Assembly (NCBI GenBank): GCA_964408425.1
Contig: CAYOZI010000001.1
Location: 8,861-72,860, forward strand
Length of the DNA: 64,000 nt
Source of the DNA: Candidatus Micrarchaeota archaeon
GTDB taxonomy: Archaea > Micrarchaeota > Micrarchaeia > Norongarragalinales > Norongarragalinaceae
Direction: 5' to 3'
Shown: one piece after another, positions 1 through 45,041 of the stretch
How positions within the stretch are numbered: position 1 is the stretch's first letter
How the letters are laid out: each line of letters starts with the position of its first letter
Made by a program: the position numbers and the translations under genes
Notes under the pieces: generated by a model
Told to the model about the DNA's origin: nothing
The model's input: the letters and a program-made list of their open reading frames with translations, nothing else
Databases searched by the model: none

Positions 1-140
1 ATGACTATTTGATGAACATTCAAGTATATAAAGAATACGCATTGAAATCAGCTCTAGGAGGAATGAAGCAAAAGTGTGTTGGGTCCACAAAGTCACCTAA
101 CAGGTAAAAAGTAGGCATAATGTCCACAAGCAAGCTTGAG

Positions 141-214
141 CGGGCCTTAGGGGATTCGAACCCCTGTCTGCGGCTTCGGAAGCCACCATTCTATCCAGGC
201 TATACTAAAGGCCC
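141..214 (-). tRNA. tRNA-Arg (anticodon CCG)
   Basis: The reverse complement folds as a cloverleaf: acceptor GGGCCTT/AAGGCCC, anticodon stem GTGGC/GCCGC with loop TTCCGAA, T-arm AGGGG-TTCGAAT-CCCCT. No CCA is encoded. Confidence 0.8.
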
Positions 215-240
215 TCCAGATAGAAATGGGGCTGAAGAAG

Positions 241-250
241 AATAAAAAAG
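241..250 (-). promoter_or_regulatory. Candidate TATA box (CTTTTTTATT on the minus strand), about 27-36 nt upstream of the tRNA-Arg 5' end
   Basis: AT-rich element at the archaeal spacing for a TATA box; inference only. Confidence 0.3.
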
Positions 251-273
251 AAGGGTGTGCAAAGTTTTTGAAA

Positions 274-2172
274 TCACGTGTTAATGCAAAGCGACTTCAT
301 CACCGAATATTCATAGTTGTTGCCGGGAGTGCTGTACTGAAAACGGGTCACGCTGCAGCCGGCAAGCGTGAAACCCGAACTGCAAGAGGGCGTTTTGTCT
401 ATCCACTTTGCCACGCCGCCGCAAGCGTTGTGGCCGTTGCAGTAAGCCCAGCAGTGCGGAATTGTCCAGTCTATGTTCGGATAACCGCTAAAATCGAAAG
501 TCGGACCCCACTCCACGGCGTTGGTCCAACCAGTCACGATAGCCGCCATCGGAAGCACGTAAATCTTGTACTGCGTGTCAGGACCCCCGCCTCCGGCCGG
601 GCAGTTCGTCCCGTCTTCCAGGCAAACGTCCTTGCCGCCCACCTTAGCAGTCGTCCCCCTTACGGACAAAGAACCAACTGAAGCCGAACCGCTTGTTCCC
701 GACCCGACCGTCAAAGGACCGTTTAAAACGTTCAACCCGCTCGAACTGCCTACGCCCAAGCCGGTAGTTATATACACTGGAATATCCGCGCCGCTAGCCA
801 AATTCCTGCCCCGGATTTGAGACGAAGACAAGCCCGAGTGCAAAGTCAAACCGGCGAAAGACCCGCCGTCCGCAGGCAGCAACCCGCCTTCAACCTGAAT
901 GTATTTCGGAATGCTCCCGGCAGCTTGCGTAAGCTTCAGGAAAGGATAATTAGAATTGCCGGTCCTTCCGAGGGTAATATCCCCGCTGGAAGGCTGGACT
1001 GTCGTTGCGGTTACCGAATCTGAAATTATTCCTGAAGTGAATTCCAAAGGAATGATCACGCCGGAAGAAAGCCTCATCCCGCGGATTAAAACGGTGTTTC
1101 CAACGTAATTGCTGCCCAAAGTCAAGCCTCCAAACCCTGTGTCCGAGCCGTACAACGGCCCCCGCAATTCGGCATAACGCCTCGAGTAAAGCGAGTCTCC
1201 CGAGGGAACCAGGTTCAAAGACGGGTAAGTTGACAACGCCACTTCACCAATGCGGATGGACCCGCGGTTTTGGCTCGTGTCGGCAACGCGAACGTTCGGA
1301 GTATAAACGGTCGGAGTTTGCAAAGCGCCCTGCATCACTTCCGTTCCAGAAGGATTGTCCTTTCGCACGTAATTCCCTCCGGACGAGCCCGAACCGCAAT
1401 TCCCGTTCTTCATGCAAACTTCGTAAGTCGTAGTGCCGTTTTTAACGTACAACCTTCCCGCAGCAGCCACTTCAACAGTCACGCTGGTTCCTGCAGCTCC
1501 GGAAGCAGGCTGAATCACATTCGTTTTCACAGGACCTGGAGAAACGGTCAAAGCGCCTTGAACTGCAACGCCCGACTCGAACGTAACGGGGTCTTGAAAA
1601 GTGGCGTCAGACTGGAATATGGCGTTCGCGGAGAAATAACTCGGAACCCTGAACCAAGCCCAGGAGTACTGCGACTGCGGGTCGTTGGGAATGCCGAAAA
1701 TAGAGTTTCCCCTGAAAATCGACAAGAACGGGTAGGAACTGCCGGAATAATAATAAAATTTCAGGATACTGTCGCCGCCAAAACCGCCGACCAGCAAACG
1801 CCCGGAAGCATTTGCGTTTACAGCCTCAAAGTCGGTTGGAACGGCAACACCGCTTTGAATCTGCGTTGGGTAGAAAACCTGGCACTGGAAGTTAGTCGAG
1901 CTGAACGACAGTCTCAGCGAATAATCGGCGTTTGAAGAAAACAAACCCCCGTCGAAAGCCAGGTCGAAAACACCGTTCGAGCTTGTAGAGTCGGATTTGG
2001 TCATCAAAACGGAACCGGAACAATCGGCAGTGGAATAAACGTTTCCAACGACGTTTCCAGACTGCGGGCTTCCAGTGGCGTTAATAATCCTTCCTTGAAC
2101 GTTCAAAACCGGCAGGGCGAAAACGAAACCCATCGCGAAAAACAAGCCCAAAACGAAAAACAAGCCCTTCAT
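274..2172 (-). CDS. Large secreted surface protein (paralog 0); signal peptide MKGLFFVLGLFFAMGFVFALPVLNVQGRI; C-terminal DVCLEDGTNC region shared with the 5735..7615 protein
   Basis: 633-aa ORF. The ORF track starts at 2184 with 4 extra codons; start chosen at MKGLFF. The N-terminal 30 aa and the coding nucleotides are identical to those of the 5735..7615 gene. Confidence 0.7.
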   Translation of the reverse strand: MKGLFFVLGLFFAMGFVFALPVLNVQGRIINATGSPQSGNVVGNVYSTADCSGSVLMTKSDSTSSNGVFDLAFDGGLFSSNADYSLRLSFSSTNFQCQVFYPTQIQSGVAVPTDFEAVNANASGRLLVGGFGGDSILKFYYYSGSSYPFLSIFRGNSIFGIPNDPQSQYSWAWFRVPSYFSANAIFQSDATFQDPVTFESGVAVQGALTVSPGPVKTNVIQPASGAAGTSVTVEVAAAGRLYVKNGTTTYEVCMKNGNCGSGSSGGNYVRKDNPSGTEVMQGALQTPTVYTPNVRVADTSQNRGSIRIGEVALSTYPSLNLVPSGDSLYSRRYAELRGPLYGSDTGFGGLTLGSNYVGNTVLIRGMRLSSGVIIPLEFTSGIISDSVTATTVQPSSGDITLGRTGNSNYPFLKLTQAAGSIPKYIQVEGGLLPADGGSFAGLTLHSGLSSSQIRGRNLASGADIPVYITTGLGVGSSSGLNVLNGPLTVGSGTSGSASVGSLSVRGTTAKVGGKDVCLEDGTNCPAGGGGPDTQYKIYVLPMAAIVTGWTNAVEWGPTFDFSGYPNIDWTIPHCWAYCNGHNACGGVAKWIDKTPSCSSGFTLAGCSVTRFQYSTPGNNYEYSVMKSLCINT

Positions 2173-2178
2173 TTCAAC
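2087..2178 (-). repeat. ~92-nt exact repeat (signal-peptide coding region plus upstream), copy A; copy B at 7528..7619
   Basis: An identical nucleotide stretch encoding MKGLFFVLGLFFAMGFVFALPVLNVQGRI in two paralogous genes. Confidence 0.8.
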
Positions 2179-2201
2179 GCCCACCCCGCTTTAATGCAAA
2201 C

Positions 2202-3305
2202 TCAGCCCAAGGTTTTTTTCAATCCGAACAAAAACCCTAGCGCCAAAAGCTGAACGAAAAACCCTGCGAAACCCGCTATTACTGCCGCCATCGCTCCCGA
2301 AAACAACGCGAAGCGGTTGTACACCAACCGGAATTCGGGAATGGCGTAAAGCTGTTGTTTCAACAACCCCCCCTGGCTTCCGGCCGCGCTTATTATGGCA
2401 GTATTGACGCCTTGGGCTATCCGCCCGGAGTTTTCCTTGAAAGCGTCGTAAGTGTAATCCACGGCTTTAACGTGAAAAGCTGCGACCAACGAATCCTGCT
2501 CCGCTTGAGACAATGTAGTATAACCGGGATAGTTTTCCACGAGAAAATCCCTGGACAAATCCTGAGTCACGATGGAAGCAAAATCCTCTTTCGTGATCGA
2601 CGAGGAAATGGAATTCGAGTCTATGTTAATCCCTCCCGTCGCAGCCCTCGCCAAAAGCGAGTCCAAAAGCAAGTTCACGTGCGCATCCTTGTTTTCCGCG
2701 ACCTTGTAGAAAACCACGAAAAACGCCAACAGCGCGAAAAGCATCATTCCGGCGCTGAGAATGGCGAACGCGCGCGGCAGGGAAAAACGGGGCGATATGG
2801 AGGAGACTATCGCGCAGAATGAAATAACGGCTGCAAAAGTCAAGAACGGGGTTAAAAGCCAAGGGTAGAATGCAAAGCCCATTACCGCCGAAACCATGAA
2901 AGCCAGTATTGTCACTAGCACGCCCGACACTACGCCCAAGCCCAACGAGTAATACATTGCCAGCGCTATGCAAGCTGCAAACAACAGGACGAAAATGATG
3001 AACGAAACGCTGTACAGCTTCGTGATGGTGAACGAAGCCCTCTGGAGGTCGAACAAGTCCATCGTCTTGAAATTGCTCTTGTCGAACATTACGAGCGAGA
3101 AGGTGAAGAAGCAAAGAAGAGCTATGAGAAAAGGCAGTTTCGAGTAAAAATCCTTGCCGATTTTGATCGTGAGGGGAATGACTATCTGACGTTCGGCAGG
3201 AGGAACGTTCTGCTTTGGGCTCGGCTTGGGCTTGGAAGCCTTCAGCTCCTCGTCCGACTCCGGCATTATCAACGACAATGGGTCTTTGGAAGCTTTCACG
3301 GGCAT
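2202..3305 (-). CDS. Polytopic membrane protein (~7 TM helices plus a ~130-aa soluble insert), function unknown
   Basis: The ORF track extends to 3617 and overlaps the divergent pyrB start. Trimmed to MPVKASK (ATG at 3305), which leaves a 52-nt divergent intergenic region. Confidence 0.5.
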   Translation of the reverse strand: MPVKASKDPLSLIMPESDEELKASKPKPSPKQNVPPAERQIVIPLTIKIGKDFYSKLPFLIALLCFFTFSLVMFDKSNFKTMDLFDLQRASFTITKLYSVSFIIFVLLFAACIALAMYYSLGLGVVSGVLVTILAFMVSAVMGFAFYPWLLTPFLTFAAVISFCAIVSSISPRFSLPRAFAILSAGMMLFALLAFFVVFYKVAENKDAHVNLLLDSLLARAATGGINIDSNSISSSITKEDFASIVTQDLSRDFLVENYPGYTTLSQAEQDSLVAAFHVKAVDYTYDAFKENSGRIAQGVNTAIISAAGSQGGLLKQQLYAIPEFRLVYNRFALFSGAMAAVIAGFAGFFVQLLALGFLFGLKKTLG

Positions 3306-3357
3306 GACAATTACCAACGCAAAAGAAAATAAAAACCTAACAGGCTGAAGAATAAGG

Positions 3358-4287
3358 GTGGGAAACATGGGTTTGAAGGGAAGGGACTTCATTTCAGTAA
3401 ACGATTTCAGCAATTCGGAGATCCAAGCGGTTTTCGACACCGCTTCGGAAATGGAAAAATTCGTGAAAAAAGGAACCGACTCATGCAAGGGAAGGGTTTT
3501 AGCCACCCTCTTTTTCGAGCCTTCCACGCGCACGCAATTCTCTTTCCAAACCGCCATGCTCCGCCTGGGCGGAGGGGCTATAGGGTTTTCGGACACGAGC
3601 GGAACTTCAGTATCCAAGGGGGAAACGCTTCAAGACACGATTCGCATCATAGAAGGATACTCGGACGTAATCGCAATGCGCAGTTCCCAACCCAATTCGC
3701 TTTCTTTTGCTGCGGAATACGCGTCCATTCCGGTCATAAGCGGGGGGGAAGGGAAGGGAGAACATCCCACTCAAACGCTTCTCGATTTGTACACGATAAA
3801 AAAAGAGTTGGGAAGGCTGGACGTGAAGATAGGGTTTTACGGAGATTTGAAGTACGGAAGGACGAACCATTCCTTAATGCTCGGCGCCTCGAGATTCGGG
3901 GCTGATTTTCACTGCATTGCGCCTCAAGAACTGCAAATGCCCGAGGAATACGTGAAGAAAGCAGAGGAAAACGGGGCCAGGGTGGAGTTCGAGGATAGTA
4001 TTGAAAGCGTCCTGCCGGAACTCGACGTTCTGTACGTCTCGCGATTGCAAAAAGAACGTTTGCCTCCTGAAGCGGATTACGAAACGATGAAGAAAGCGTA
4101 TCACGTCGACAATTCCTTGATGGAAAAAATGAAGGAAAACTCGCTGTTGATGCACCCTCTGCCCAGGGTGGGGGAAATAGAAGATTCCGTTGATTCCGAC
4201 CCGAGGGCGGCGTATTTCCGCCAGGCTGCGAACGGAGTGCCGATAAGAATGGCGTTGATAGCTCTTTTGCTGGGAGCGGTGGAATAA
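3358..4287 (+). CDS. pyrB: Aspartate carbamoyltransferase catalytic subunit
   Basis: FFEPSTRT carbamoyl-phosphate motif, HPLPRVGEI motif (ATCase, not OTCase), ~309 aa. GTG at 3358 or ATG at 3367 (the latter has GGTGG 7 nt upstream). Confidence 0.85.
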   Translation: MGNMGLKGRDFISVNDFSNSEIQAVFDTASEMEKFVKKGTDSCKGRVLATLFFEPSTRTQFSFQTAMLRLGGGAIGFSDTSGTSVSKGETLQDTIRIIEGYSDVIAMRSSQPNSLSFAAEYASIPVISGGEGKGEHPTQTLLDLYTIKKELGRLDVKIGFYGDLKYGRTNHSLMLGASRFGADFHCIAPQELQMPEEYVKKAEENGARVEFEDSIESVLPELDVLYVSRLQKERLPPEADYETMKKAYHVDNSLMEKMKENSLLMHPLPRVGEIEDSVDSDPRAAYFRQAANGVPIRMALIALLLGAVE

Positions 4288-4305
4288 AATAAAAAAGAAA
4301 AAAAT

Positions 4306-5193
4306 TCAAACCAGTATTTTCACCGAATCCTTTTCCACGATCACGGTGGATTCCGCCTGCGAAACCAAGCCTTTGTCCTCGTCCAGCAAAACCGAATAAC
4401 CGTGCATTATTCCCTGCTTCTGCAAATCGCGAAGCGTGAATTCGATCATCTTCTCCTTCGCATACCACCGTTTTGCGAAAGGAAGCATCTGCCTTTCCGC
4501 AAAAACCTTTTCCAAAAACGCTCGGCTTGAAGGCATTCTCACGTTCTTAGGAAACAAAAACGAGAAAATCTCTGGCGGTTTGGGGGAATCCACGACGAAA
4601 CCCGCGCCTGTAGAGGCGAAGGGCTCTACTGCGAAAACCTCGCCTTCCTCGAAAACGTGTCCCTCCCCGCCTTTCCCGACATTAGGAACTTCTATCCCCG
4701 CGTGCAAGTCATACGGCTCGAGCAAGTGTCCGCACAGATTCTCGACGGGCTTGAATCCCTTGGAAACGATCGTTTTTTCGATCGTCTCGCCGATTTTCTT
4801 TGCTGAAACGCCGGCTTTCATCACGCTCAATGCATCTTGAAGAGCCTGTTTCGAAGCTTCGACTAGCTTTCCGTTCTCCCCGCTCAAATCAACCGTGAAA
4901 CCCGCGTCGATAATGCAACCCTCAATATGAACGCCGATATCGACTTTCACTACCTCTTTTCCGAAAACCCTTTCCTCGCCAAAGGCGGGAGTGTTGTGCG
5001 CGGCTTCGAAATCGAACGAAATGTTCACGGGAAAGGCGATTTTCCCGCCCGAATCAACGATTTCCTTTTCAATCTCCTCGGCAGCCTTCAAAACGCCTTC
5101 TCCGGTTTTCACCACGCTTGCCGCCGTTTCCTGCGCGGCAGCGTGCACCCTGGCAGCTTGCAGGTAATTCTTCGACTCCTCTTCCGAAACCAT
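4306..5193 (-). CDS. map: Methionine aminopeptidase, archaeal type 2
   Basis: 295 aa, pita-bread fold motifs (..NLCGHLLEPYDLHAG..), the length typical of archaeal MetAP. Confidence 0.8.
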   Translation of the reverse strand: MVSEEESKNYLQAARVHAAAQETAASVVKTGEGVLKAAEEIEKEIVDSGGKIAFPVNISFDFEAAHNTPAFGEERVFGKEVVKVDIGVHIEGCIIDAGFTVDLSGENGKLVEASKQALQDALSVMKAGVSAKKIGETIEKTIVSKGFKPVENLCGHLLEPYDLHAGIEVPNVGKGGEGHVFEEGEVFAVEPFASTGAGFVVDSPKPPEIFSFLFPKNVRMPSSRAFLEKVFAERQMLPFAKRWYAKEKMIEFTLRDLQKQGIMHGYSVLLDEDKGLVSQAESTVIVEKDSVKILV

Positions 5194-5271
5194 GCTTTAA
5201 GCCCACCTGAAACGAAACTAAAAAATAAACGGAAAATAATTGGGACGGGAAGGAATAAAAAACGCGGTTTT

Positions 5272-5718
5272 TCAGCCTATCGAAGAAAGGCATTGTTGCT
5301 TCAATTCTTCAGGCAGCCCGTCGCAAGGAACCGCTTCTGAGGGGGAAAAACCGTCTGAAGCCGCAGGCTGGTTTTCCATAGACTGAAGGCACGCGGTTTT
5401 CAATTCATCCGGCAAACCGTCGCAAGGCTGCGGTTCCGTGGAAGAAGCCGAAGCGGCTTCAACCGAATTCAAACACTCTTGCGTCAATTCTTCCGGCAAG
5501 CCCGAACACGGGGTTTCTTCGTCGGGGTTTAAAGAAGGCGAGGGACTCGCTCCTCCGACTACGTTCACCGCCACGACTCCCGTCGCAGGAGGCTGAGGCG
5601 CGACAGGCACGGGATTCTGGGACGGCAGCTGCAAAACCCAGGAAAAGAAAACCAGAGCCAAAGCCAAGACTCCCAACGCCACAAGCAAAACCGCGTTTTT
5701 ATCCAACTTGAAACCCAT
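5272..5718 (-). CDS. Small secreted/anchored protein with three Cys-bracketed repeats (PC[SD]GLP[ED]ELxxxCL)
   Basis: N-terminal hydrophobic anchor/signal (AVLLVALGVLALALVFFSWVLQL), a Pro-rich linker, and 3 repeats each with two Cys 11 residues apart. It is a paralog of 9088..9558. Confidence 0.65.
   Translation of the reverse strand: MGFKLDKNAVLLVALGVLALALVFFSWVLQLPSQNPVPVAPQPPATGVVAVNVVGGASPSPSLNPDEETPCSGLPEELTQECLNSVEAASASSTEPQPCDGLPDELKTACLQSMENQPAASDGFSPSEAVPCDGLPEELKQQCLSSIG
5286..5370 (-). repeat. ~85-nt identical segment shared with 9102..9187 (3' end of the Cys-repeat genes)
   Basis: Direct sequence comparison: gaaaggcattgttgcttcaattcttcaggcagcccgtcgcaaggaaccgcttctgagggggaaaaaccgtctgaagccgcaggctgg. 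Confidence 0.75.
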
Positions 5719-5734
5719 TTTTCACACCCCTAGT

Positions 5735-7615
5735 TTACACTTTCCCGCACAACGACGTTACGACCCTGCCCATAGTGTTCGGACAATTAATCAGGCCAAT
5801 CGAACCGCCGCACATTTCGTCGGTATAGCTGCATCCTTTCAACACAGGATAATCGCCAGGGCAAGCTGGGGTAACATCCACCAGAGGCCCCACTCCGATG
5901 ACAAAACCGAAGTCCGAACACGTATCGGAGCCAGAACCATCATTGCACCTCGCTATGCAAAGGGGAGGCTTGTCGTAAACATTTTGAAAGTCAAGCACGT
6001 AGAACTGGAGATCATTCCTGTCCACTCCGATGAACTCCCCAATCTGGAAATAATTGAAGGTAACAGGAGAACTGCTTCCGGACCTGGTCTCCAAGAATCT
6101 TGAAACGTACTTCACTGAATAATCCGTCTGGGCTTTGCAATTAGTCCCGTCTTCCAGGCAAACGTCCTTGCCGTTGACAGTCGCGGAAGAACTCCGTACT
6201 GCAAGAGAACCCACTGAAGCGGAACCGCCCGTTCCCGAACCCACGGTCAACGGACCGTTTAAAACGTTCAACCCGTTCGAACCGCCTACGGTCAAACGCC
6301 CGTCCACAGCAGCATCTCCGCTTACGTCCAAGCTATCATCAATATTGACTGCAGAAGCACCTTGAGCGGAAATCAAAGTGTTCAACAAGGTCAACTTCGA
6401 CGCAACGCCGGCAGCGCCGATGGTGATTTCCGGAACGTTTGTGCTAGCCTCTTGCACCTTAAACATCACGGTGGTTCCCGTTTGAACGGTGAAGGGAAGA
6501 TAGCTGTTGAGGAATACGGCCACGCCCTGCTGCCCCCACAGGCTGACGGCATTGGCTTTAGGAAAAGAAGAACCAGGAACGGCCACGTTCGGGTATTTGA
6601 TAGCGTTTGCAACCAATTCCGAACCGGTTCCGCTCAAAACCACGTCCCCGTTGAAAGTGGAAGTTCTCGGCGTTGAAGAAGAGCCGACAGCGAAATTGTT
6701 CAAAACCGCAACTGGATTGTTGACCGTCTGGGTCCCGTAACCGGAAGGCTTGACGACGTAATTCACGTTGTCAACACCCCCTCCGCTTGGACAGCCGGTC
6801 CCGTCTTTCAAGCAAACTTCCTGCGCAACGCCACTGCCTTTCTTCACCACCGCCTTTCCCGATTGCCCCACTTGCAAGGTCAAGTCGTTCGCTCCCGTAG
6901 TGGCCGTAGTGCTTACAGAATTGGTTTTAACGCCGCCGGCGCCCGAAACCGTAAGCCCGCCGCTTCCCGAAACGCTCAAATCATCCCCAATCCTCACAGG
7001 ATTCGCACCCGGACTGTAAATCGACCCGTAAACATTGAGCGCCCCGTAAGCGTTCAAACTAGGCTGGTTTGAATCACCCACAGGCAAATTCAAGTCCCAA
7101 ACGAAAACGTTGTTCCTAAACCAAGAGAACGTGCCATTATTGTAAGGATAGCCGAAAATCGAGTGTCCGTTCAAAACCGAAATCGGCGAGTACTGATTGT
7201 AATAATAATTCGCCCAGAAATCGCCCTTGAAATCGCCAACCACGAGTTTTGACGTGGCATTCGCATTAAGCGGAACCACCGTTCCACCCTGCACTTGAGT
7301 CGGGTAAAACGCCTGGCATGAAACCAGCGTTACGCTGCCGTAAACCAAGCGCAAGTAGTAAGGAGTGTTGGAAGCAAGCAATCCGGACGGGTAATTCAAA
7401 GTAACGTCGAAAATGCCGTTAGTCAGAGAAGTGTCCTGCCCGCTGAACAAAGCTGTTCCAGAACAAGTTGAAGACGCGAAAACCGACGCGGTGACGCTCC
7501 CGGAAGAAACCGGATTCCCCCCGTTCAAAATCCTTCCTTGAACGTTCAAAACCGGCAGGGCGAAAACGAAACCCATCGCGAAAAACAAGCCCAAAACGAA
7601 AAACAAGCCCTTCAT
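5735..7615 (-). CDS. Large secreted surface protein (paralog 1), same signal peptide as 274..2172
   Basis: 626 aa. The MKGLFFVLGLFFAMGFVFALPVLNVQGRI start is identical, the YYLRLVY motif and the C-terminal DVCLEDGTNC block are shared, and the middle is rich in G/S/T/N/V. Confidence 0.75.
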   Translation of the reverse strand: MKGLFFVLGLFFAMGFVFALPVLNVQGRILNGGNPVSSGSVTASVFASSTCSGTALFSGQDTSLTNGIFDVTLNYPSGLLASNTPYYLRLVYGSVTLVSCQAFYPTQVQGGTVVPLNANATSKLVVGDFKGDFWANYYYNQYSPISVLNGHSIFGYPYNNGTFSWFRNNVFVWDLNLPVGDSNQPSLNAYGALNVYGSIYSPGANPVRIGDDLSVSGSGGLTVSGAGGVKTNSVSTTATTGANDLTLQVGQSGKAVVKKGSGVAQEVCLKDGTGCPSGGGVDNVNYVVKPSGYGTQTVNNPVAVLNNFAVGSSSTPRTSTFNGDVVLSGTGSELVANAIKYPNVAVPGSSFPKANAVSLWGQQGVAVFLNSYLPFTVQTGTTVMFKVQEASTNVPEITIGAAGVASKLTLLNTLISAQGASAVNIDDSLDVSGDAAVDGRLTVGGSNGLNVLNGPLTVGSGTGGSASVGSLAVRSSSATVNGKDVCLEDGTNCKAQTDYSVKYVSRFLETRSGSSSPVTFNYFQIGEFIGVDRNDLQFYVLDFQNVYDKPPLCIARCNDGSGSDTCSDFGFVIGVGPLVDVTPACPGDYPVLKGCSYTDEMCGGSIGLINCPNTMGRVVTSLCGKV

Positions 7616-7619
7616 TTCA
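7528..7619 (-). repeat. ~92-nt exact repeat, copy B (see 2087..2178)
   Basis: Identical to copy A by direct comparison of the two stretches. Confidence 0.8.
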
Positions 7620-8984
7620 ACTTCGCCCCCTGCCCCTGACGCGCATGAACAACAACGACATCAAAACCAACGCCAAAACCGCAATCAAATCCGTTTCCGG
7701 CAAAGCCTTCCTTTCCGTAACCAAAATCAAAGCCGGGTTTTCCGCATCTTCATACTTAGTCCCGCCGAAAACCACCCACGCTTCGGCCCTCAAGTTTTTC
7801 CTGTCGAAAACCTCTCCCTCCGCCAAATCGATTTTCGCCTGGAAAACGCCGGGCTTGACAAACTCAATCGGAAGAGTAACGACCTGGTCTCCGCTGTCGG
7901 CGTCAAAAACGCTCAACGCTATGCCTGGATCCGAGACTACAGCCAAACCAGTTTCAGGGTCGTTCAGCAAAATCGTTATCACTGCCTTTTCCTCGAAATC
8001 CGGAATTCCCGTTCCAGAAACCACCTTCCCCCCTTCTATCCTCAAAATATTCCCTTCCCCGCCACCTCCTGTCGGAACGCACTGGCAGGCTTGGCAGGCG
8101 AACCCCTCGCTGCAAGTCAAACCCCTTTCCCCGCACTCTTCCCCGAAATCCGTAGCGTCATTCCCATCACAGAACGAACCTCCTTGTGAAATGACGAATT
8201 GCGTGGGGTTGGGAGTGCACGTTATGAGATTCCCTCCGACAGTTCCGTTAGCCCGGATTAATTTCGTTCCTACAGTCGTGTAAGAACAGGTTCTCGTGAA
8301 AACCAAGCCGTTTTGCGTGAAAGACTGCCTGTTGCCCGTATCGCAATAACCTTGGAAATTAGTCACAGGCCCTTGGGAAAACGTTACAGTAACGTCGGTC
8401 GTTTCAGGGGAAGGCGGAATTGCGCCTGAAGAAGGGTTGATGGAAATCGAGCACGTCGGAAGGCTGACGACTTCAATGGGCTTGAACGGGCAGTTGAACG
8501 CAGGGTTGGAGAAATTGGCGTAAATTGCTTTCGACCCGACGCTCGTTCCGGTGAACTGGGTCGGGTTGGCGTTGTTCGGGTTGAAAGAAACGCCGGTCGC
8601 ATTCGCGCTCCAGGATATAGTCATGACGCCCGTAGGGCAGGAGGATGGAGAGCCGTTGTTAGTGCATTGAGCGGTGAGGGCAACTGGAACGTTTACAGTC
8701 ACCGTATCCGGCCCTGAAACTCCCGTGCAATTCCAACCCGAAGGAACGGTGGTTGCGGCAGGGCATATTCCCCCGTAACACGGGCCCACTTCTGCAGCGT
8801 AACTCCCGCTTGAAAAACTTCCCACTGGAGGGGTTGTGATGACGTATTGCACTTCGTAAGAGCCGGAAGTTTGCTGCAAGCCGGAAGTTCCAATGTGGTA
8901 GTTGGCGGTGTAAGAGCCGGAAGAAGCTTCGAAAGCGAAAGCGAAAACCGAAAACAAAAGCAATGCCGCCAAGACTTTCCGCAA
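7617..8984 (-). CDS. Secreted Cys-rich protein with a C-terminal LPETD motif + TM helix + Arg-rich tail (sortase/archaeosortase-substrate-like tripartite signal)
   Basis: 455 aa; signal peptide; Cys-rich middle; GGGGEG linker; conserved ~150-aa C-terminal domain ending ..RKALPETDLIAVLALVLMSLLFMRVRGRGRS. The stop codon abuts the start of 5735..7615. Confidence 0.7.
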   Translation of the reverse strand: MRKVLAALLLFSVFAFAFEASSGSYTANYHIGTSGLQQTSGSYEVQYVITTPPVGSFSSGSYAAEVGPCYGGICPAATTVPSGWNCTGVSGPDTVTVNVPVALTAQCTNNGSPSSCPTGVMTISWSANATGVSFNPNNANPTQFTGTSVGSKAIYANFSNPAFNCPFKPIEVVSLPTCSISINPSSGAIPPSPETTDVTVTFSQGPVTNFQGYCDTGNRQSFTQNGLVFTRTCSYTTVGTKLIRANGTVGGNLITCTPNPTQFVISQGGSFCDGNDATDFGEECGERGLTCSEGFACQACQCVPTGGGGEGNILRIEGGKVVSGTGIPDFEEKAVITILLNDPETGLAVVSDPGIALSVFDADSGDQVVTLPIEFVKPGVFQAKIDLAEGEVFDRKNLRAEAWVVFGGTKYEDAENPALILVTERKALPETDLIAVLALVLMSLLFMRVRGRGRS

Positions 8985-9087
8985 CCCGACCCAGCCCCCT
9001 GTTCAAGAAACAAATTCTAAACGCAAGAACGATATTTAAACGTTCTAGAATTCACGAGTAAAAACGTCTTTCAAAAAAAGAAGGAAT

Positions 9088-9558
9088 TCAACCTAAGGAG
9101 GAAAGGCATTGTTGCTTCAATTCTTCAGGCAGCCCGTCGCAAGGAACCGCTTCTGAGGGGGAAAAACCGTCTGAAGCCGCAGGCTGGACGTCCTGCAAGC
9201 ACTGCGCTTTCAGCCCTTCTGGCACGCCTTCGCACGGGGAAGAAGGTTCCAAAAGCGAAGGCGGAACTTCGTTTGAAGAGAAAGGCTGAACCGATTGCAG
9301 ACAATCTTGCTTCAAACCACTACCGTCAGGCAAGCCCGAACACGGTTCAACGGAAGTCTCGTCCAAAACAGGCGCGGCTTCCTGGGTAGGCGGGGAAACC
9401 ACGTTTACGGCAACCACTCCCGTCGCAGGAGGCTGAGGCGCGACAGGCGCGGGATTCTGGGACGGCAGCTGCAAAACCCAGCTGAAAAAAACCAGCGCCA
9501 ACGCCAGAACCGCCCAAGCGGCAAGCATTACAATCCTTTGGTCCAAAATCCCTTTCAT
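9088..9558 (-). CDS. Small Cys-repeat secreted protein (paralog 2)
   Basis: Start taken at MKGILDQ (the ORF track begins 8 codons earlier and would overlap the upstream gene). The N-terminal anchor and the C-terminal PCDGLPEELKQQCLSSLG are nearly identical to 5272..5718, including ~85 nt of identical DNA. Confidence 0.65.
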   Translation of the reverse strand: MKGILDQRIVMLAAWAVLALALVFFSWVLQLPSQNPAPVAPQPPATGVVAVNVVSPPTQEAAPVLDETSVEPCSGLPDGSGLKQDCLQSVQPFSSNEVPPSLLEPSSPCEGVPEGLKAQCLQDVQPAASDGFSPSEAVPCDGLPEELKQQCLSSLG

Positions 9559-9560
9559 TT

Positions 9561-10676
9561 TCAACACGCTTCCTGAACGCACAATTGAATTCCGTTCACT
9601 TTCAAGCCTCTGGGAACGAACGGTAAAACACAGTTTCCGCTTGACAACTGCGCATCAACCAAAACGCATTTTCCGGTTAGCTTAGAGAAAATGTTTTTGT
9701 TCACCACGAGATTGTCGTCAACGATAACGTCGTTTCCTGAACTTGAAATCGGGCTGGTGCCTTCAAGCACGATGCTGCCGTAAACGAGCAAGTTCGAAGG
9801 CCTTTTTTCACCTCCGTAGTTTGAAGAGCCGAAGGCAACAGTCGGGCTGAGGAACCTTGCATAAAGGCTGTAGAAAGTCGGCAGGCTGTACTTTCCGAAA
9901 AGAAGGTGGGTGAAAGTCTGGATTTTTTGCTCGTAGAAATAATCCTGCTGGTAGCCGGTCAGCGCGCCTCCAATCACGAAATAATTCGGGGGAAAAGCAG
10001 AAAACAGGGTGTTCACAGGCAACCGAACGCTGTAAGCCTGGCTGAAATCCGCACTCTCTCCGGCGTAAACGTCTTTAGCCGACACTACGCCCTTGGTCAA
10101 AACATTATCAGCATAAACGTTGTTCAGCCAAGCGCTTCCGCCCACGGCTTGCGAATAGTAAAACCTCTTGCGTTCCTTAAGCAATTCCTTCTCACCGCTT
10201 GAATCCACGTAAACCAGGCGCAGGTAATAAGCCGTGTTTATCCTCAGCAAAGGAGGGGCTACCGGAGTGGGCGAAGGGCACGGATAGCCTGCAACGCAAG
10301 CGTAAACTCGGTTAACTTGGGTTTTGGAGAAAGTCAAGTCGAAAACCGAGTCTGCATTCAACTCGTCCGTCTGCGTGAGCAACGGAGTTCCGCCCGTTGA
10401 AGCAGTGTAAACCTCGCCCCTCACGCTTCCCGAAACCGCCTTTCCCAGCGAGTCTTTAATCTTTCCCTGCACGTTCAACACAGGGTATGAAGAGCCTACA
10501 ATTGCGGTAGGAGTCTCGTAAGTATTCAAGTCGAAATCCGTTCTAATGTCCACGGAAACCGAACCATCCGATGGAGCGGTAATGCCAGTAACGTCAATAG
10601 GATCGCTGATTTCCTGCGCGAAAACCAAGCTTGAAACAAACAAAACCGCTAAAACCGAAGCTAAAAATTTTTTCAT
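9561..10676 (-). CDS. Secreted surface protein (shorter paralog of the large surface proteins)
   Basis: Signal peptide MKKFLASVLAVLFVSSLVFA; it shares the PVLNVQGKI and YYLRLVY motifs with the 274.. and 5735.. proteins. Confidence 0.6.
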   Translation of the reverse strand: MKKFLASVLAVLFVSSLVFAQEISDPIDVTGITAPSDGSVSVDIRTDFDLNTYETPTAIVGSSYPVLNVQGKIKDSLGKAVSGSVRGEVYTASTGGTPLLTQTDELNADSVFDLTFSKTQVNRVYACVAGYPCPSPTPVAPPLLRINTAYYLRLVYVDSSGEKELLKERKRFYYSQAVGGSAWLNNVYADNVLTKGVVSAKDVYAGESADFSQAYSVRLPVNTLFSAFPPNYFVIGGALTGYQQDYFYEQKIQTFTHLLFGKYSLPTFYSLYARFLSPTVAFGSSNYGGEKRPSNLLVYGSIVLEGTSPISSSGNDVIVDDNLVVNKNIFSKLTGKCVLVDAQLSSGNCVLPFVPRGLKVNGIQLCVQEAC

Positions 10677-10706
10677 TTCCCAAACCACCCCGTTAATGCA
10701 AAAAAA

Positions 10707-11951
10707 TTATTTCCTTTTCCTCTCAGCTTTTGTTTTGCTTAAGCGAAGGTACAGCAACGCGGTGAAAACCAACGCCAAAACCGCAATCAAATCCGTTTCC
10801 GGCAAAGCCTTCCTTTCCGTAACCAAAAGCAACGCCTTGTCCTCGACATCAGCGTACTCGACGCCGTCAACTTCAACCCACGCTTCAACCCTCAACGTTT
10901 TCTTTTCAAACTCCGCATTGGATAACGAAAGCGTCGCTTCAAAAACACCCGGCTTGCCAGTGTAAGAAACGGACACGGGAATTTCCTCGTCGCTCCCGTC
11001 ATCGAAAACCTTCACGTTCAAGCCGGGGTCGCTAGTCAAAGCCAACCCGGTTTTCGGGTCGTTCAACAAAATAATTACTTTCGCGTTTTCCGAAAAGTCT
11101 TCAGCCGAAGAGCCGGAAAAAACCTTTCCCGCTTCAATCCTCAAAACGCTTCCCACTCTCGAAGAATCGACGCAAGCGCTGCAAGCCACGCAAACCTGGC
11201 TTAAAACGCAGCCGTCATTCAAATCGCAAGTTTCTCCGAACTCGCGAACTCCGTTCCCGCAAACCGCTCCGCCCCCGCCCCCATCGTCAGGAGGAAGGAT
11301 GTCTTCCCTGGCCCTGAAAACCGGGTAGGAATTGGGTTGCGCAGGCGGCGAACGGGCAAAACACTCCACGAACTCTCCGTTTACCACTCCGCTGGAAATT
11401 ACCGTTGAAGTGAAAGGCGGGCTTCCTTGATAAAAGCAAACTCCCTCGAACTCCAAGCCAGTAGGGTCCGGAGAAAACTGGGTGGTGATTTCGCCGTTGT
11501 ACCCGCAATCGGCTTCGACCGAATCCTCTTCAGGAACGCCGGAAAACGACAGGGTCACCGCAACGTAAGTGGAACTAGAACCCGAATCCGGTTCAAGGAA
11601 AGCAATGCAGGATTTGCCCCCGCCCGGAGGGGTTACGGTAGGAGACGGAATTGGGGTGGGAGTGGCGGAAGGCGTGGGCGACGGGGTTGCGGTCGCCGCC
11701 GCTGAAACGAAAGGACAGGTTTGCCCGTAACACGGGCCCAAGTCCGTGTTCAACTCGCCGTCGTTCGACCCTATCGGCGGCAGGACTATCGAATATTCGA
11801 CGGAATAACCGTCTATTGCAGAAGGTCCTTCGAAACCCGCTGGTCCGATGTGAAAGCTCGTGTAAAAATCGTTGAAATTCGAATCGTAAGAAAAAGCCAG
11901 AGATGAAAAAACAATCAGGAAAAAGAAAAATGCGCTTGGTTTTCCCTTCAA
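10707..11951 (-). CDS. Secreted protein with a C-terminal LPETD + TM + Lys/Arg tail (paralog of 7617..8984)
   Basis: 414 aa; signal peptide; Pro/Thr/Ser-rich linker; GPCYGQTCP and Cys-rich region. The C-terminal domain and the ..RKALPETDLIAVLALVFTALLYLRLSKTKAERKRK are conserved, with ~65 nt of DNA identical to the 7617.. copy. Confidence 0.7.
   Translation of the reverse strand: MKGKPSAFFFFLIVFSSLAFSYDSNFNDFYTSFHIGPAGFEGPSAIDGYSVEYSIVLPPIGSNDGELNTDLGPCYGQTCPFVSAAATATPSPTPSATPTPIPSPTVTPPGGGKSCIAFLEPDSGSSSTYVAVTLSFSGVPEEDSVEADCGYNGEITTQFSPDPTGLEFEGVCFYQGSPPFTSTVISSGVVNGEFVECFARSPPAQPNSYPVFRAREDILPPDDGGGGGAVCGNGVREFGETCDLNDGCVLSQVCVACSACVDSSRVGSVLRIEAGKVFSGSSAEDFSENAKVIILLNDPKTGLALTSDPGLNVKVFDDGSDEEIPVSVSYTGKPGVFEATLSLSNAEFEKKTLRVEAWVEVDGVEYADVEDKALLLVTERKALPETDLIAVLALVFTALLYLRLSKTKAERKRK
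10765..10829 (-). repeat. ~65-nt identical segment shared with 7663..7727 (coding for the ..ALPETDLIAVLALV.. anchor)
   Basis: Direct comparison: aaaaccaacgccaaaaccgcaatcaaatccgtttccggcaaagccttcctttccgtaaccaaaa in both LPETD genes. Confidence 0.75.
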
Positions 11952-12003: not shown

Positions 12004-12885
12004 TTATTTAAACGTTTTTTCCGAAAGCAACGGATTCGCTAAAGGCGAGACGACCGGCGACGGTTGAGCAAAAGGAGAAGGGGAAAGGGAGGGCAGGCTT
12101 GAAGACCGCATAGGAATTTCGGCAATTTTCATTACGCTCGGAACTTGAAAAGTTTGCTTTGATAAAGAAAAAGCGCCGATGTCGGTTGAAACTAGGGAGA
12201 AAGGCGACGAGGTATTCCCAGAAGGAGGCAAAACAGGCTGCACTGCAACCAAAACCTGCGAAAACTGCAAGCCGGGCAAGGAAAAAGGCCGAATCGAAGG
12301 AGTTTCAACTGCAGAACCGTACGGCGGCAAAAACCCCCCGCTTTCGAGCCTGCAACGCAATTTCACGTAGTTGTCCAACTGCCTTCGGTAGATTACCTTG
12401 TTTCTGGAGTCTTTCACAACCACCTCCCGCACGCCGCACGAGAAAGGAGCGAAAAGAACCGCGTTCGGAACGGTTACGCTTGATTCTCGTCCAACGCAGC
12501 CGCCACTGCCGCCGTCAAGAACTCCGCTCGCGCTTCCGAAACACTCGGGAGAGTCGGACAAAACCGTTTTGGTGAAAGAAAATTTGGCGGAAAAAACCGG
12601 TTGTTTCCTCGAATTCCTCAATTCCATCGTGAAATCCCCCGAACCCCCCTGTTTTTGCAAGAACGAGTCGTACAACACCACCCGGTCGACCGAAACCCGC
12701 CCTCCCTCGTTGGAAAACCTGAATGCGAAAACGGGCTTGAGGAAATCTTTCGCAACCGTGAAAAGCCGCTCGCCGCCAGCCTTGCTCAAATCACCTTCCG
12801 AACTTCCGCCGCCCGCCATAGAAAAGCCGCTTGCGCTTGCGCCCAGGATTACGGCGAAAAACAATGCAAACAGCAGTTTATTCAA
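12004..12885 (-). CDS. Secreted hypothetical protein
   Basis: Signal peptide MNKLLFALFFAVILGASASG, Ser/Pro-rich C-terminus; overlaps the upstream metalloprotease gene by 4 nt (operon-like). Confidence 0.5.
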   Translation of the reverse strand: MNKLLFALFFAVILGASASGFSMAGGGSSEGDLSKAGGERLFTVAKDFLKPVFAFRFSNEGGRVSVDRVVLYDSFLQKQGGSGDFTMELRNSRKQPVFSAKFSFTKTVLSDSPECFGSASGVLDGGSGGCVGRESSVTVPNAVLFAPFSCGVREVVVKDSRNKVIYRRQLDNYVKLRCRLESGGFLPPYGSAVETPSIRPFSLPGLQFSQVLVAVQPVLPPSGNTSSPFSLVSTDIGAFSLSKQTFQVPSVMKIAEIPMRSSSLPSLSPSPFAQPSPVVSPLANPLLSEKTFK

Positions 12886-15881
12886 GAAAATCCCTCCAAC
12901 GACTGGTTCAACGACCGTTGGTTCACTTTCCCGAAAGCATCACGCCAAGCGTAATCGCTATCCGTGACAAACCCGGGAGACCAAAACAATACAGGCGAAA
13001 AATCCAGGTAGTAATGGAACAAGACGAACGAAAACCAGTCCCCGCCGCTGCTCATCATCGACCTCACCGTCGGCCTCGCCCCGCTCTCCCCGTCCGTACA
13101 ACCCGGAGGAGTGTAAGACAAGATGCGCGTGTAGTTAACGCAACTCACGTCCCCGTAAATGCAATGCCAGTAATCATCATCAAGAGGCTGTTCGGAACTC
13201 TCGCTATGCAAATAATCCAATTCGGGCTCGCTCAGGATTTTCAACGCGCCCTTGCCCCCGCCAACCAAATCCCCCCACCATTCCATTGCTGTTGAAGAAT
13301 TCGGAGCGCAGCTCGGCATTCCCTCCGTGTTCCCAGGCCACTCGTCTTTCAACCAGCTTAAAGCATGCCCGAACTCGTGCACAACCGCGGCCGTTTCCCA
13401 CCGGTCGTACTCGAACCTAGTCGTAACCATGAAAAACATCGGATAAGCCATCCCCCCGTTTCCGCCAATGTTGTTTGTCGTCAAAACCCCGCGCAAGTCC
13501 GCAGGACAGGACAATACAGCCGCAGTCCAATCGCCCGAACCACCGCTGCAAAACCGCCAGTTCGCCTCGCAGTAATCACCCATGCGGCTGAAGCGCAAAA
13601 AGTTTATCTTCTGCTCTTGGGAGTGCAACGGTTCTATCAACGAAAGCCCTGTGAGAGAAAAGTTGCTGTCGTTGTCGAAACTCGCTTGCCGGTAGTGCCA
13701 CTCCTGCTCGTCGTAAGAATAATTCATCCCGTCCCCGAACAACGCCACGTCCAGCTTAGTCTCTGGGTTGCCGCTGTAATCCCACACGATGCAAGCGTCG
13801 GTATACAAAACAGGCGTGCCAGCCGCGGTGAGGTTGTTGTTCGAATAATCCGGCTCGAAACCCTGCTGGAACGGGTTTGCATTGGCGAAAACCGAGAAGT
13901 CGCTCTCGCCGAAAAACTCTTCAGGAGGAGTCCAGTTGAAAACAACCGTCGAGTTGCCCAAAGCGTTCCACGCCCCCTCGCCCGGCTGGATTTCAAAAGT
14001 GCCGAGCGTCACCGGCTCGGTCCAAAAACCGCTTTCGTTCGCAGGCGTGTAATACTCGAAATGCGTTTCGTTCAAAACCACGCTGATGACCGAAAAAGTC
14101 CCGTTCGGAAAAGGCGCGTTCCCCAAGTTTTTCACTACGACGACAACCTGCCCCGCGTGATTAATGTCAGGCTGCGTCGGGAAGCTTATTTCGTCTACCG
14201 CCAAGTCCGGAACGTTAACAAAAACATTTTGAGAGCGGTTGTTGTTTCCCTCGCTTTCCTCCAAACCGGCAATGTTCGGCTCGTCGGAAACGAACGCCTT
14301 GAGCGAATGGCTTCCGCCCACGCTCGGCGTCCAGTCGAACTGCACCAGGGCAGAAGCGCTTCCGTTCCATAACCCCTCGCTCTTGCTAACGTTCTTGATT
14401 CCTATGAAACGCGCGTCGCTCTGGTTGAGAGTGAAAATATCTCGCGTCAAAACCACGAAAATGTTCGTGGTGTTGGAAGGAAACGGCGCGTTGCGCAAGT
14501 TCGCTATCGTAATGTTGATCGTGGAAGGCTGCAATATTCGCAGAGTTGGGGTGGAAATGCTTTGAACCGCCAAATCCGGCCTATCCACGTTCACGCTCAA
14601 GTTCAAAACGTTGTTCGACTCGCTCTCCTCCACGCCGTTCGCATCCGGAACGTCGTCAACTTCCAAGGTCAAATTGCGCAGCCCCCCGCTTTGCGGAGTC
14701 CAGTCGAAAACAAAACTGTTTTTGCCCCAAGCGAGCCAAACGCCAGCGTTTTTGGAAACGTTCACTTCCTCTACCACGGTGTTCGCGTCTTTCAGCCTAA
14801 CGAAAACATTCCGAGTAGAAGCCGGAATGGAAGCGTTGTTGGCGTTAGAAACGTTGACTTCCACCCGGACTTTCTTCCAAATCGACGGGCTTTGCAAAAC
14901 CCGGATGCTCTGCGCGACCAAATCCGGCTTTGTGATTCCAACCGAAACGTTCATCGCTGCAATATTGTTGTTCTCGCTAACCTCCCTGCCGTAAGGCTCT
15001 CCGAATTCCGGATAATCATCCGCATAAACGTAAACCGGATAATTGCCGCTCTTCATTGGAATCCAGTCGAAAGAAACCCTGCTTTCCCCGTTCGCATTCC
15101 ACGCTCCAGAGTTTTTCGGAATCAAAACCATTCTAGCGCAGCCGTTCGTTTGCATGCACGATTGGAATTCAGCCTGGTCCTGCTCGTCCCAGAACACCCC
15201 GTCGCCGTCAAACCAAACGAAAATCTTTTCAGCAGGATTGCGGCTTGAATCGAAAACGCCGAACCCCACGTTTTTCGAATTACGCACGGTAACATTCACC
15301 CTCTCAAGCTGAAACGCCTCGAAAGGAAGATAGCCTACAGCAAGCCCGCTCAAAGTCAAATCCGGCCTTGCCCCGACGAAAGCCTTCCAATTCACCAAAA
15401 CCCCGTACTCATCCTCGACATTAACAATCCCGTCCTTGTTCCCATCCAACAAGGAACAGGAAACCGTTTCCCCACCAACAACGCAGTTTTCCGAAGAGTT
15501 TTTCCCCGCATTCCCTTCAACCGCAACCAAATCCGGATTGCTCACGTAAAAATCGTCGTTGTAATCGTAAAAAGAAACCGGGCTGCACGAAGAGCCGTAG
15601 TCATACCCCAACGCTGCGTTATCCCTCTCGTCCACAACCCCGTCGCGATTCGCGTCGAACGCTTTGCAAACGATTCCCGTATTCAAATTCCAAGAGCAAG
15701 AGTTTTGCGAAGAGCTTTTCCCGAAATTCTCCCTCAACGGACCCTGGTCCGCATCATTCACAATCCCGTCGTAATTGACGTCCGAATAGCAGGAAGAAGA
15801 ATAGGCGGACGCGAATAGGGAAAAGCCCGCAACTAGGAGCACGAACGCTATGGCAACAAAGGCAAAAATTCGGCGTTTCAT
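12882..15881 (-). CDS. Large secreted zinc metalloprotease (HEFGH) with 3 N-terminal dockerin/EF-hand-like Ca-binding repeats and ~4 CARDB-like repeats
   Basis: ~1000 aa; signal peptide MKRRIFAFVAIAFVLLVAG (ORF track starts 9 codons earlier); DVNYDGIVNDAD, DANRDGVVDERD and DGNKDGIVNVED repeats; four PDL(V/A/T)..S..-type repeats; HExxH at ~13365..13379. Confidence 0.7.
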   Translation of the reverse strand: MKRRIFAFVAIAFVLLVAGFSLFASAYSSSCYSDVNYDGIVNDADQGPLRENFGKSSSQNSCSWNLNTGIVCKAFDANRDGVVDERDNAALGYDYGSSCSPVSFYDYNDDFYVSNPDLVAVEGNAGKNSSENCVVGGETVSCSLLDGNKDGIVNVEDEYGVLVNWKAFVGARPDLTLSGLAVGYLPFEAFQLERVNVTVRNSKNVGFGVFDSSRNPAEKIFVWFDGDGVFWDEQDQAEFQSCMQTNGCARMVLIPKNSGAWNANGESRVSFDWIPMKSGNYPVYVYADDYPEFGEPYGREVSENNNIAAMNVSVGITKPDLVAQSIRVLQSPSIWKKVRVEVNVSNANNASIPASTRNVFVRLKDANTVVEEVNVSKNAGVWLAWGKNSFVFDWTPQSGGLRNLTLEVDDVPDANGVEESESNNVLNLSVNVDRPDLAVQSISTPTLRILQPSTINITIANLRNAPFPSNTTNIFVVLTRDIFTLNQSDARFIGIKNVSKSEGLWNGSASALVQFDWTPSVGGSHSLKAFVSDEPNIAGLEESEGNNNRSQNVFVNVPDLAVDEISFPTQPDINHAGQVVVVVKNLGNAPFPNGTFSVISVVLNETHFEYYTPANESGFWTEPVTLGTFEIQPGEGAWNALGNSTVVFNWTPPEEFFGESDFSVFANANPFQQGFEPDYSNNNLTAAGTPVLYTDACIVWDYSGNPETKLDVALFGDGMNYSYDEQEWHYRQASFDNDSNFSLTGLSLIEPLHSQEQKINFLRFSRMGDYCEANWRFCSGGSGDWTAAVLSCPADLRGVLTTNNIGGNGGMAYPMFFMVTTRFEYDRWETAAVVHEFGHALSWLKDEWPGNTEGMPSCAPNSSTAMEWWGDLVGGGKGALKILSEPELDYLHSESSEQPLDDDYWHCIYGDVSCVNYTRILSYTPPGCTDGESGARPTVRSMMSSGGDWFSFVLFHYYLDFSPVLFWSPGFVTDSDYAWRDAFGKVNQRSLNQSLEGFS

Positions 15882-15996
15882 TGCGTTAAAATATGACGAA
15901 AACAACATTAAAAACTATTATTTTAACCACTAAACAGTTTATAACAAAACGAGTTTTTGATTGCTCGAACGCTACAAGTGGCGTTTTGAAATAAGG

Positions 15997-19683: not shown

Positions 19684-19797
19684 GTGCGGCGACCGGGAAT
19701 CGAACCCGGGCTACCAGCTTTCTGCTCTTTCTTTGGTCAAGCTTTCTTTCGCAAAGAAAGGTTGGAAGGCTGGAATCATACCATTAGACCATCGCCG
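19684..19797 (-). tRNA. tRNA-Gly (anticodon UCC) with a ~43-nt intron at the canonical 37/38 position
   Basis: Acceptor GCGGCGA/TCGCCGC, anticodon stem CCAGC/GCTGG, loop CTTCCA|intron|A, T-arm CCGGG-TTCGATT-CCCGG. The intron (~19719..19761) carries the hairpin TTTCTTTGCGAAAGAAA. Confidence 0.75.
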
Positions 19798-19815
19798 CGC
19801 GAATAATACTGGAGC

Positions 19816-45022: not shown

Positions 45023-45041
45023 GACAAGCCTTTAAAATTTC

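Follow-up and report, generated by a model that had tools for sequence, protein, structure and literature searches.

Two surface-protein genes with a common C-terminal tail

We analyzed 64,000 nucleotides (nt) of DNA from a Candidatus Micrarchaeota archaeon (NCBI GenBank assembly GCA_964408425.1, contig CAYOZI010000001.1, forward-strand positions 8,861 to 72,860; this whole stretch is referred to as "the window"). The subject of the analysis is gene A, which encodes a secreted type-I surface protein, together with its paralog gene B and the C-terminal tail common to the two proteins, here called the PETD tail after its motif. The description of gene A draws on its open reading frame (ORF) and translation, on the homologs P0001 and P0002, and on a profile search. 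The two genes and their parts (lengths in amino acids, aa) are as follows:

7617..8984, minus strand: gene A, 455 aa, secreted type-I surface protein
7689..7703, minus strand: motif L-P-E-T-D of gene A, residues 428-432 (PETD itself at 7689..7700)
7644..7688, minus strand: hydrophobic segment of gene A, 15 residues (LIAVLALVLMSLLFM), predicted helix (residues 123-142 of the structural model)
7620..7643, minus strand: cationic tail RVRGRGRS of gene A, followed by the stop codon at 7617..7619
10707..11951, minus strand: gene B, 414 aa, paralog of gene A with the same C-terminal module
10791..10802, minus strand: PETD of gene B
10746..10790, minus strand: hydrophobic segment of gene B
10710..10745, minus strand: basic tail of gene B
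7663..7726 (A) and 10765..10828 (B), minus strand: identical 64-nt stretch encoding LVTERKALPETDLIAVLALV

The gene A product consists, in order, of a Sec signal peptide, an N-terminal module, a Cys-rich segment, an Ig-like membrane-proximal domain, and the PETD tail. Sec-type signal peptides can be read from the sequence of both proteins (MRKVLAALLLFSVFAFA/FE and MKGKPSAFFFFLIVFSSLAFS/YD), and the predicted topology of both places the ectodomain outside and the basic tail inside (N-out, C-in). Gene A ends in LILVTERKALPETDLIAVLALVLMSLLFMRVRGRGRS and gene B in LLLVTERKALPETDLIAVLALVFTALLYLRLSKTKAERKRK. The common C-terminus thus reads KALPETD, 15 hydrophobic residues, and a basic tail, and the two translations thereby confirm the report of a first-pass annotation that both paralogs end in LPETD, a hydrophobic helix, and basic residues. 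The proteins are 47% identical across their C-terminal 186 aa (BLASTP), and a degenerate DNA pattern for the tail finds 2 matches in the window, with 0 expected. The product of gene B has an identical entry at NCBI, P0035, encoded on a contig of 79.7 kb. Scanning A, B, and their neighbors against Pfam and NCBIfam yielded no family.

The N-terminal ~75 residues of A and B (signal peptide plus SSGSYxxNYxIG...GPCYG; 8760..8984, minus strand, in gene A) form a separate conserved module, which also occurs in other small secreted proteins (P0014, P0016, P0019, and P0020). One of these, P0014, has a C-terminus that, judged by eye, reads PEF, a transmembrane (TM) segment, and RRRK; this tail scores slightly under the LPXTG_anchor cutoff and has no PEF-CTERM match.

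Conservation of the PETD tail in DPANN archaea

A HMMER profile search of 1.84 billion representative proteins returned 19 proteins at E <= 0.001. A word-indexed search returned only the query itself, its paralog, and one ortholog, P0002 (53% identity), whose gene adjoins PolB on a JGI contig. Matches to the C-terminal 130-170 residues extend to another nine proteins (P0004-P0007, P0009, P0011-P0013, and P0015), of which eight terminate in [L/V]PE[T/S]D with a hydrophobic segment and then basic residues behind it; P0009 has ALAETT instead. With extra tails drawn from contig look-ups and DNA-pattern scans, the set grew to 15 distinct tails, all on contigs of Micrarchaeota and Iainarchaeota and representing three DPANN lineages. 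JAWABJ01, a Norongarragalinales metagenome-assembled genome (MAG), encodes at least three tail proteins (651 aa, about 620 aa, and 171 aa, the last being P0011), with genes at about 165-170 kb and about 435 kb of one 714-kb contig. Loci L007 and L115 each hold a pair of tail-bearing paralogs, a 'Candidatus Micrarchaeota' contig syntenic with the window (L003/L030) bears a tail gene, and a 313-aa protein of a 'Candidatus Iainarchaeum' MAG (L033) ends in FPETD, 15 residues, and RKG.

The tripartite architecture described in the first-pass annotation is therefore real, and it is kept in all 15 tails. The residue before the Pro position is L, V, or F in 15/15, and the motif positions that follow are Pro in 14/15, Glu in 15/15, Thr or Ser in 15/15, and Asp in 14/15; the last position is Thr in the remaining tail and never Gly. 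The hydrophobic segment is exactly 15 residues long in every tail, the next residue is Arg in 14/15, and the net tail charge ranges from +2 to +6. The adjoining Ig-like domain shows only 24-35% identity between the window proteins and those of L004, L007, and L115, with many indels. At least 2-3 proteins per genome carry the tail, and they differ in N-terminal architecture while sharing the upstream Ig-like domain, which precedes the tail in 14 of the 15 cases. The only tail protein without detectable homology to this domain is that of L033, of which hhalign aligns just the last 46 columns to the family profile, although it may be a very distant homolog. Another C-terminally anchored protein of the lineage (L178, 881 aa) lacks PETD, and its hydrophobic stretch is longer, at 21 residues.

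On the sequence evidence, then, the tail is a lineage-restricted, strongly conserved C-terminal module that is absent from current family libraries. The module is made up of the Ig-like domain, a short charged linker, [L/V/F]-P-E-[T/S]-D, exactly 15 hydrophobic residues, and an Arg/Lys tail, and it occurs in Micrarchaeota (Norongarragalinales) and Iainarchaeota.

Searches with the degenerate pattern are consistent with this distribution. Across 185,579 species genomes, the pattern matched 45 times, which is about chance expectation, and only five matches were proper ORF-terminal tails. Four of these (L030, L033, L039, and L048) are archaeal and all DPANN (Micrarchaeota, Norongarragalinales twice, and Iainarchaeum). 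The fifth comes from a member of the Cellvibrionaceae and ends in VPETDSVYLLGLGIFALIAVRRLKKA, with sub-threshold matches to many PEP-CTERM models; it is a bacterial PEP-CTERM-like tail with PET replacing PEP. This protein (L054, 1969..2703, plus strand, 244 aa) is secreted and ends in VPETD, a TM segment, and RRLKKA. In metagenome contigs, at least three of the matches listed are true tails, all from the known family, and a genome-contig search with a 3-sequence alignment found no relative. The database call for P0006 (185 aa; L004, about 8672..10558, plus strand) looks truncated, since its frame extends upstream to about 620 aa with a signal peptide; the extended frame holds Cys-rich repeats and long (PSPSGS)n linkers and overlaps three small minus-strand calls without family matches.

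The tails also evolve in concert. Norongarragalinales relatives have two paralog types, with a domain identity of 59-72% between orthologs versus 42-47% between paralogs. For the tails, the order is reversed: paralog tails are 100% identical in protein in L007 (458..3392; both have PESD and LLVIAFFALLAFFFV) and 95% identical in L115 (about 100..3495), whereas orthologous tails of these two genomes are only 73-77% identical. L004 (6143..10558) is also listed among the loci with concerted paralog tails. Since 5 of the 22 codons differ between the L007 tails, their identity is not simply the result of very recent conversion; rather, the protein sequence appears to be held alike in both paralogs, which points to selection on the tail sequence. 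The 64-nt identity between genes A and B fits the same tendency. The first-pass annotation had put this stretch at 65 nt; the identity itself is real, and its length is 64 nt. Within the run, codons at shared amino acids are identical in 22 of 22 cases, as opposed to 27 of 57 outside it, and the DNA beside it is 54% identical over 106 aligned nt. Repeated gene conversion or co-evolution with a shared partner are both possible causes of the concerted tails, and under either cause, the tail is treated as a functional unit.

The sharp border between the 64-nt run and its flanks could also suggest an artefact, with the conservation arising from recent gene conversion or from an element acting at the nucleotide level, such as an RNA structure, and not from selection on a protein signal. 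However, 15 tails from different genomes preserve motif and spacing while using different codons, and the 64-nt stretch shows no folding signal on either strand (z = -1.4 and -1.0) and no Rfam match. We regard this as the least probable of all the explanations considered here.

For the C-terminal 145 residues of gene A, AlphaFold2 predicts from a 12-sequence alignment (mean pLDDT 75.6) a beta-sandwich (residues 1-113), a coil (114-122), and a helix (123-142). A Foldseek comparison of the model with the PDB gave only generic Ig, filamin, and FN3-like matches, with TM-scores of about 0.4-0.5. The sequence RKALPETD lies in the coil, between the last strand and the TM helix, at a low block pLDDT of about 54. 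The motif therefore occupies a short, flexible stretch of chain directly next to the membrane helix. The strong conservation of a motif within a flexible linker suggests recognition by another protein.

Processed signal or permanent anchor

Our tentative interpretation, to which we assign a probability of about 0.45, is that the PETD tail is a processed sorting signal of the archaeosortase/exosortase type. Given the Sec signal peptides, the tail must first act as a stop-transfer segment; it halts transfer during export, so that the ectodomain stays outside while the basic tail remains cytoplasmic. The PETD motif, flush with the membrane, would then serve as the recognition site for a membrane-embedded partner, most likely a C-terminal processing enzyme that acts like an archaeosortase or exosortase. 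Cleavage would fall at or beside P-E-T-D; the enzyme would remove both helix and cationic end and pass the protein on to an acceptor, either a lipid or another envelope component. Under this interpretation, the tail could be named "PETD-CTERM", with PEP-, PEF-, and PEFG-CTERM as the nearest signals in form.

A recognized signal is favored because the motif, the 15-residue length, and the Arg are kept while the adjacent domain falls to 24-35% identity. It is favored further because the tail occurs in several copies per genome, at separate loci and in different architectures; because the Iainarchaeum protein of L033 shares only the tail with the family; because tails evolve in concert; because the other C-terminal anchor of the lineage, in L178, has a longer hydrophobic stretch and lacks PETD; and because the motif begins hydrophobic-Pro-Glu flush with the helix, as in PEP/PEF/PEFG. 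The PEF-like tail of P0014, recognized by eye, is a further point in favor.

Cleavage by a processing enzyme may thus explain the tail, but a permanent type-I anchor is a candidate beside it, which has to be weighed against the gene neighborhood. Two genes follow gene A on the same strand:

5735..7615, minus strand: large secreted protein without anchor, 626 aa (paralogs at 9561..10688 and 274..2184)
5272..5718, minus strand: small N-terminally anchored protein, 148 aa, with three C-x-GLPEELK-x-x-CL repeats (paralog at 9088..9582)

The 626-aa protein starts 1 nt after the gene A stop, and the two genes are probably co-transcribed. A three-gene cassette, consisting of a PETD-anchored protein, a large unanchored protein, and a small N-anchored Cys-repeat protein, is repeated within 274..11951 (minus strand). 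L003 has the same gene order as the window (PETD gene, ~606 aa, 148 aa, M24 peptidase, and pyrB), with the ortholog of the small Cys-repeat protein at 3130..3576, and the PETD genes of L004 are flanked by different small N-anchored Cys-rich proteins. In relatives without the cassette insertion (L178 and L179), M24 and pyrB follow almost directly after PolB.

This arrangement fits a complex of anchor and cargo, in which the helix is never removed and holds the Ig-like stalk on the membrane, following a logic like that of SlaB. We consider this quite possible as well, and rank it second to processing. The tail may then dock the unanchored large secreted protein encoded downstream, and PETD may be a juxtamembrane feature, that is, a helix N-cap, a contact to a lipid head group or cation, or a docking site. 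The translational coupling of PETD genes to large secreted proteins without anchor and the presence of small N-anchored Cys-rich proteins alongside PETD genes in two lineages are in line with a permanent anchor, as are the inheritance of the tail with one Ig-like domain and a domain-motif linker of only about 5 charged residues. In addition, gene conversion alone could give identical paralog tails. On the other hand, generic anchors rarely keep a four-residue motif, an exact length of 15, and a fixed Arg at such low domain identity, and the L007 paralog tails are identical in protein despite their codon differences. Furthermore, 15 hydrophobic residues are short for a stable archaeal membrane span, with 21 in the other anchor of the lineage, and the motif lies in a low-confidence coil and not in a structured element.

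A processing enzyme was sought among 20 window proteins, including every predicted membrane protein. None matches a model of the sortase (PF04203), exosortase/archaeosortase (PF09721, NCBIfam Art/Xrt), rhomboid, or CPBP families, in agreement with the first-pass annotation, which had seen no sortase or archaeosortase gene in the window. The window membrane proteins with family matches are ferric-reductase-like, DUF6498, VTT/DedA, MarC, and EMC3/YidC-like proteins. The same enzyme families are missing from precomputed Pfam lists for ~60 kb of JAWABJ01 (159-199 and 425-446 kb) and for other related contigs, and the ~2 kb of contig beyond the window hold no relevant gene. This absence from the inspected DNA is a weak negative, as coverage was only about 10% of a genome.

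The polytopic membrane protein encoded at 2202..3305, which had been put forward as a candidate partner, does not hold up in this role. It is 100% identical to an NCBI protein from 'Candidatus Norongarragalinales archaeon', has homologs only in Norongarragalinales, and matches no Pfam or NCBIfam model. An alignment of seven members contains no invariant Cys, and its AlphaFold2 model is an all-helical bundle with no fold match in the PDB (TM-score < 0.2). In every relative, the gene is divergent and stands beside pyrB, whether or not PETD genes are near; the 625-aa protein next to its JAWABJ01 homolog has no relationship to the large surface protein of the window. The missing invariant Cys, the lack of a family or fold match, and the synteny with pyrB speak against it as a sortase-like Cys transpeptidase.

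At the Iainarchaeum locus L033, a gene lying 2 nt downstream of the FPETD gene encodes a 187-aa polytopic membrane protein (1063..1626, minus strand) with a GDSxxxxxGxxxG motif, which has no family match and no homolog at the other loci. The locus also encodes a CDP-alcohol phosphatidyltransferase 4 kb from the FPETD gene and, at 3468..5978 (plus strand), an 836-aa ORF that resembles a housekeeping enzyme interrupted by an intein.

Several results, apart from the absence of an enzyme in the inspected DNA, weigh against processing. Portability of the tail, a hallmark of sorting signals, is unsupported, given the same Ig-like domain in 14 of the 15 cases. None of the curated CTERM models (TIGR02595, TIGR03024, TIGR04126, TIGR04296, and others) matched a PETD tail at E <= 10. 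A 41-aa profile of the tail alone likewise retrieved nothing at E <= 10, probably because so short and hydrophobic a profile loses its hits to filtering. The motif is not immediately preceded by a low-complexity linker; the Ser/Pro-rich linkers lie N-terminal of the Ig-like domain. Finally, a review (PMC6098224) describes archaeosortases only for a subset of Euryarchaeota, and our literature search found no paper that ties an archaeosortase or sortase to DPANN or Micrarchaeota. A related proposal is that the tail belongs to a new DPANN sorting system, whose enzyme would be unrelated to sortases, archaeosortases, rhombosortases, and CPBP myxosortases, being either an unrecognized membrane protein of reduced genomes or, conceivably, a protein supplied by the host at the contact site. 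We consider this proposal unlikely.

Elsewhere, the window encodes PolB, a split RpoB, and a proteasome subunit, in line with an archaeal source. Among named proteins, those nearest to the products of the window come from Candidatus Norongarragalinales, which places the DNA in a DPANN archaeon of the Micrarchaeota. Directly downstream of PolB lies a gene for a 1008-aa secreted protein (12882..15908, minus strand) with three CARDB repeats, a dockerin/EF-hand-like N-terminal segment, and a weak M64 (IgA peptidase-like) metalloprotease region containing HEFGH. Two tandem ferric-reductase-like (PF01794) membrane proteins of 193 and 217 aa are encoded at 43409..44699 (minus strand), beside a tRNA-Asp gene. 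The tRNA genes at 19685..19798 (114 nt) and 44885..45023 (139 nt), both on the minus strand, are detected by Rfam but missed by ARAGORN and presumably carry introns, as would fit an archaeon.

DPANN cell surfaces mediate host attachment and are almost uncharacterised, and the literature we searched describes C-terminal sorting systems for a subset of Euryarchaeota and not for DPANN. The signature [LVF]PE[TS]D, 15 hydrophobic residues, and R is easy to search for and picks out a limited group of micrarchaeal and iainarchaeal surface proteins. As such, the tail offers a handle for phylogenetic profiling in search of a cognate enzyme, for proteomic tests of possible C-terminal cleavage or lipidation, and for the annotation of "hypothetical proteins". 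If the tail is only an anchor, it still identifies the subunit by which a repeated three-gene surface cassette is attached to the membrane.

Comparison with known sorting and anchoring systems

The first-pass annotation had likened the tail to a sortase substrate. LPETD is one position away from LPETG, L-P-x-T is present in most PETD members, and the layout of motif, hydrophobic segment, and cationic tail is that of LPXTG proteins. A true LPXTG-class substrate would be cleaved between Thr and Asp of LPETD, and the protein would be linked to a cell-wall polymer. However, PETD tails have Asp in place of the Gly of the scissile bond and lack the G, A, or N that follows Thr in the LPXTG pentapeptide, and V or F can take the place of L in the first position. 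A spacer between motif and helix, which the extracellular domain of sortases normally requires, is absent from PETD tails. TIGR01167 (LPXTG anchor) did not match any of eight PETD/PESD-type tails at E <= 10, and the P0009 tail reached 14.0 bits, below the 15.9 cutoff, through its TM and basic part only. The host is an archaeon, and no PF04203 protein was seen in the window or the related loci. Because Gly, a fixed first residue, a spacer, a TIGR01167 match, and, in the DNA inspected, a PF04203 match are all lacking, the likeness to LPETG is superficial, and we consider a sortase substrate very improbable; the geometry is that of exosortase and archaeosortase signals. None of the 15 motifs contains Gly-Gly or Cys, unlike the Gly/Ser-rich motif of rhombosortase (GlyGly-CTERM) signals and the invariant Cys of myxosortase signals.

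As in a plain type-I anchor, the proteins have a signal peptide, an ectodomain, one C-terminal helix, and a positive-inside tail, which fits both processing and permanent anchoring. The closest parallel for the latter is SlaB, the S-layer anchor of Sulfolobales (PMC6098224), which is likewise Sec-exported, has one or more beta-sandwich domains and a single C-terminal helix, and is encoded beside a large unanchored surface protein. It differs in that SlaB is not known for an invariant juxtamembrane motif or a fixed helix length, and in that the anchor gene comes before the large-protein gene here; no sequence relationship is expected between the two.

For processing, the relevant systems are PEP-, PEF-, and PEFG-CTERM, the substrates of exosortases and archaeosortases (PMC6098224; bioRxiv 10.1101/2023.06.07.544157). 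PETD tails depart from these signals in that the motif is P-E-[T/S]-D and not PEP, PEF, or PGF, in that the hosts are DPANN archaea, with no archaeosortase in the DNA inspected, and in that the tail stands almost only behind one Ig-like domain and not on many unrelated proteins. In the last respect, PGF-pre-PGF offers a lead, as a precedent for a folded domain that habitually stands directly before a CTERM signal. A second lead is the alphaproteobacterial VPEID-CTERM of the exosortase E system: VPEID and the VPETD of P0011 and P0012 are one residue apart, while VPEID-CTERM was not among the NCBIfam matches for the tails. As for likeness, both the PETD tail and the PEP/PEF/PEFG-CTERM signals sit at the extreme C-terminus of Sec-exported surface proteins, begin with hydrophobic-Pro-Glu, abut a short helix, and are followed by an Arg/Lys cluster; both keep a fixed spacing and occur in several copies per genome in a lineage-specific form. 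Altogether, PETD tails have the tripartite CTERM organization of a motif flush with the TM helix, a basic cluster, and an N-terminal signal peptide.

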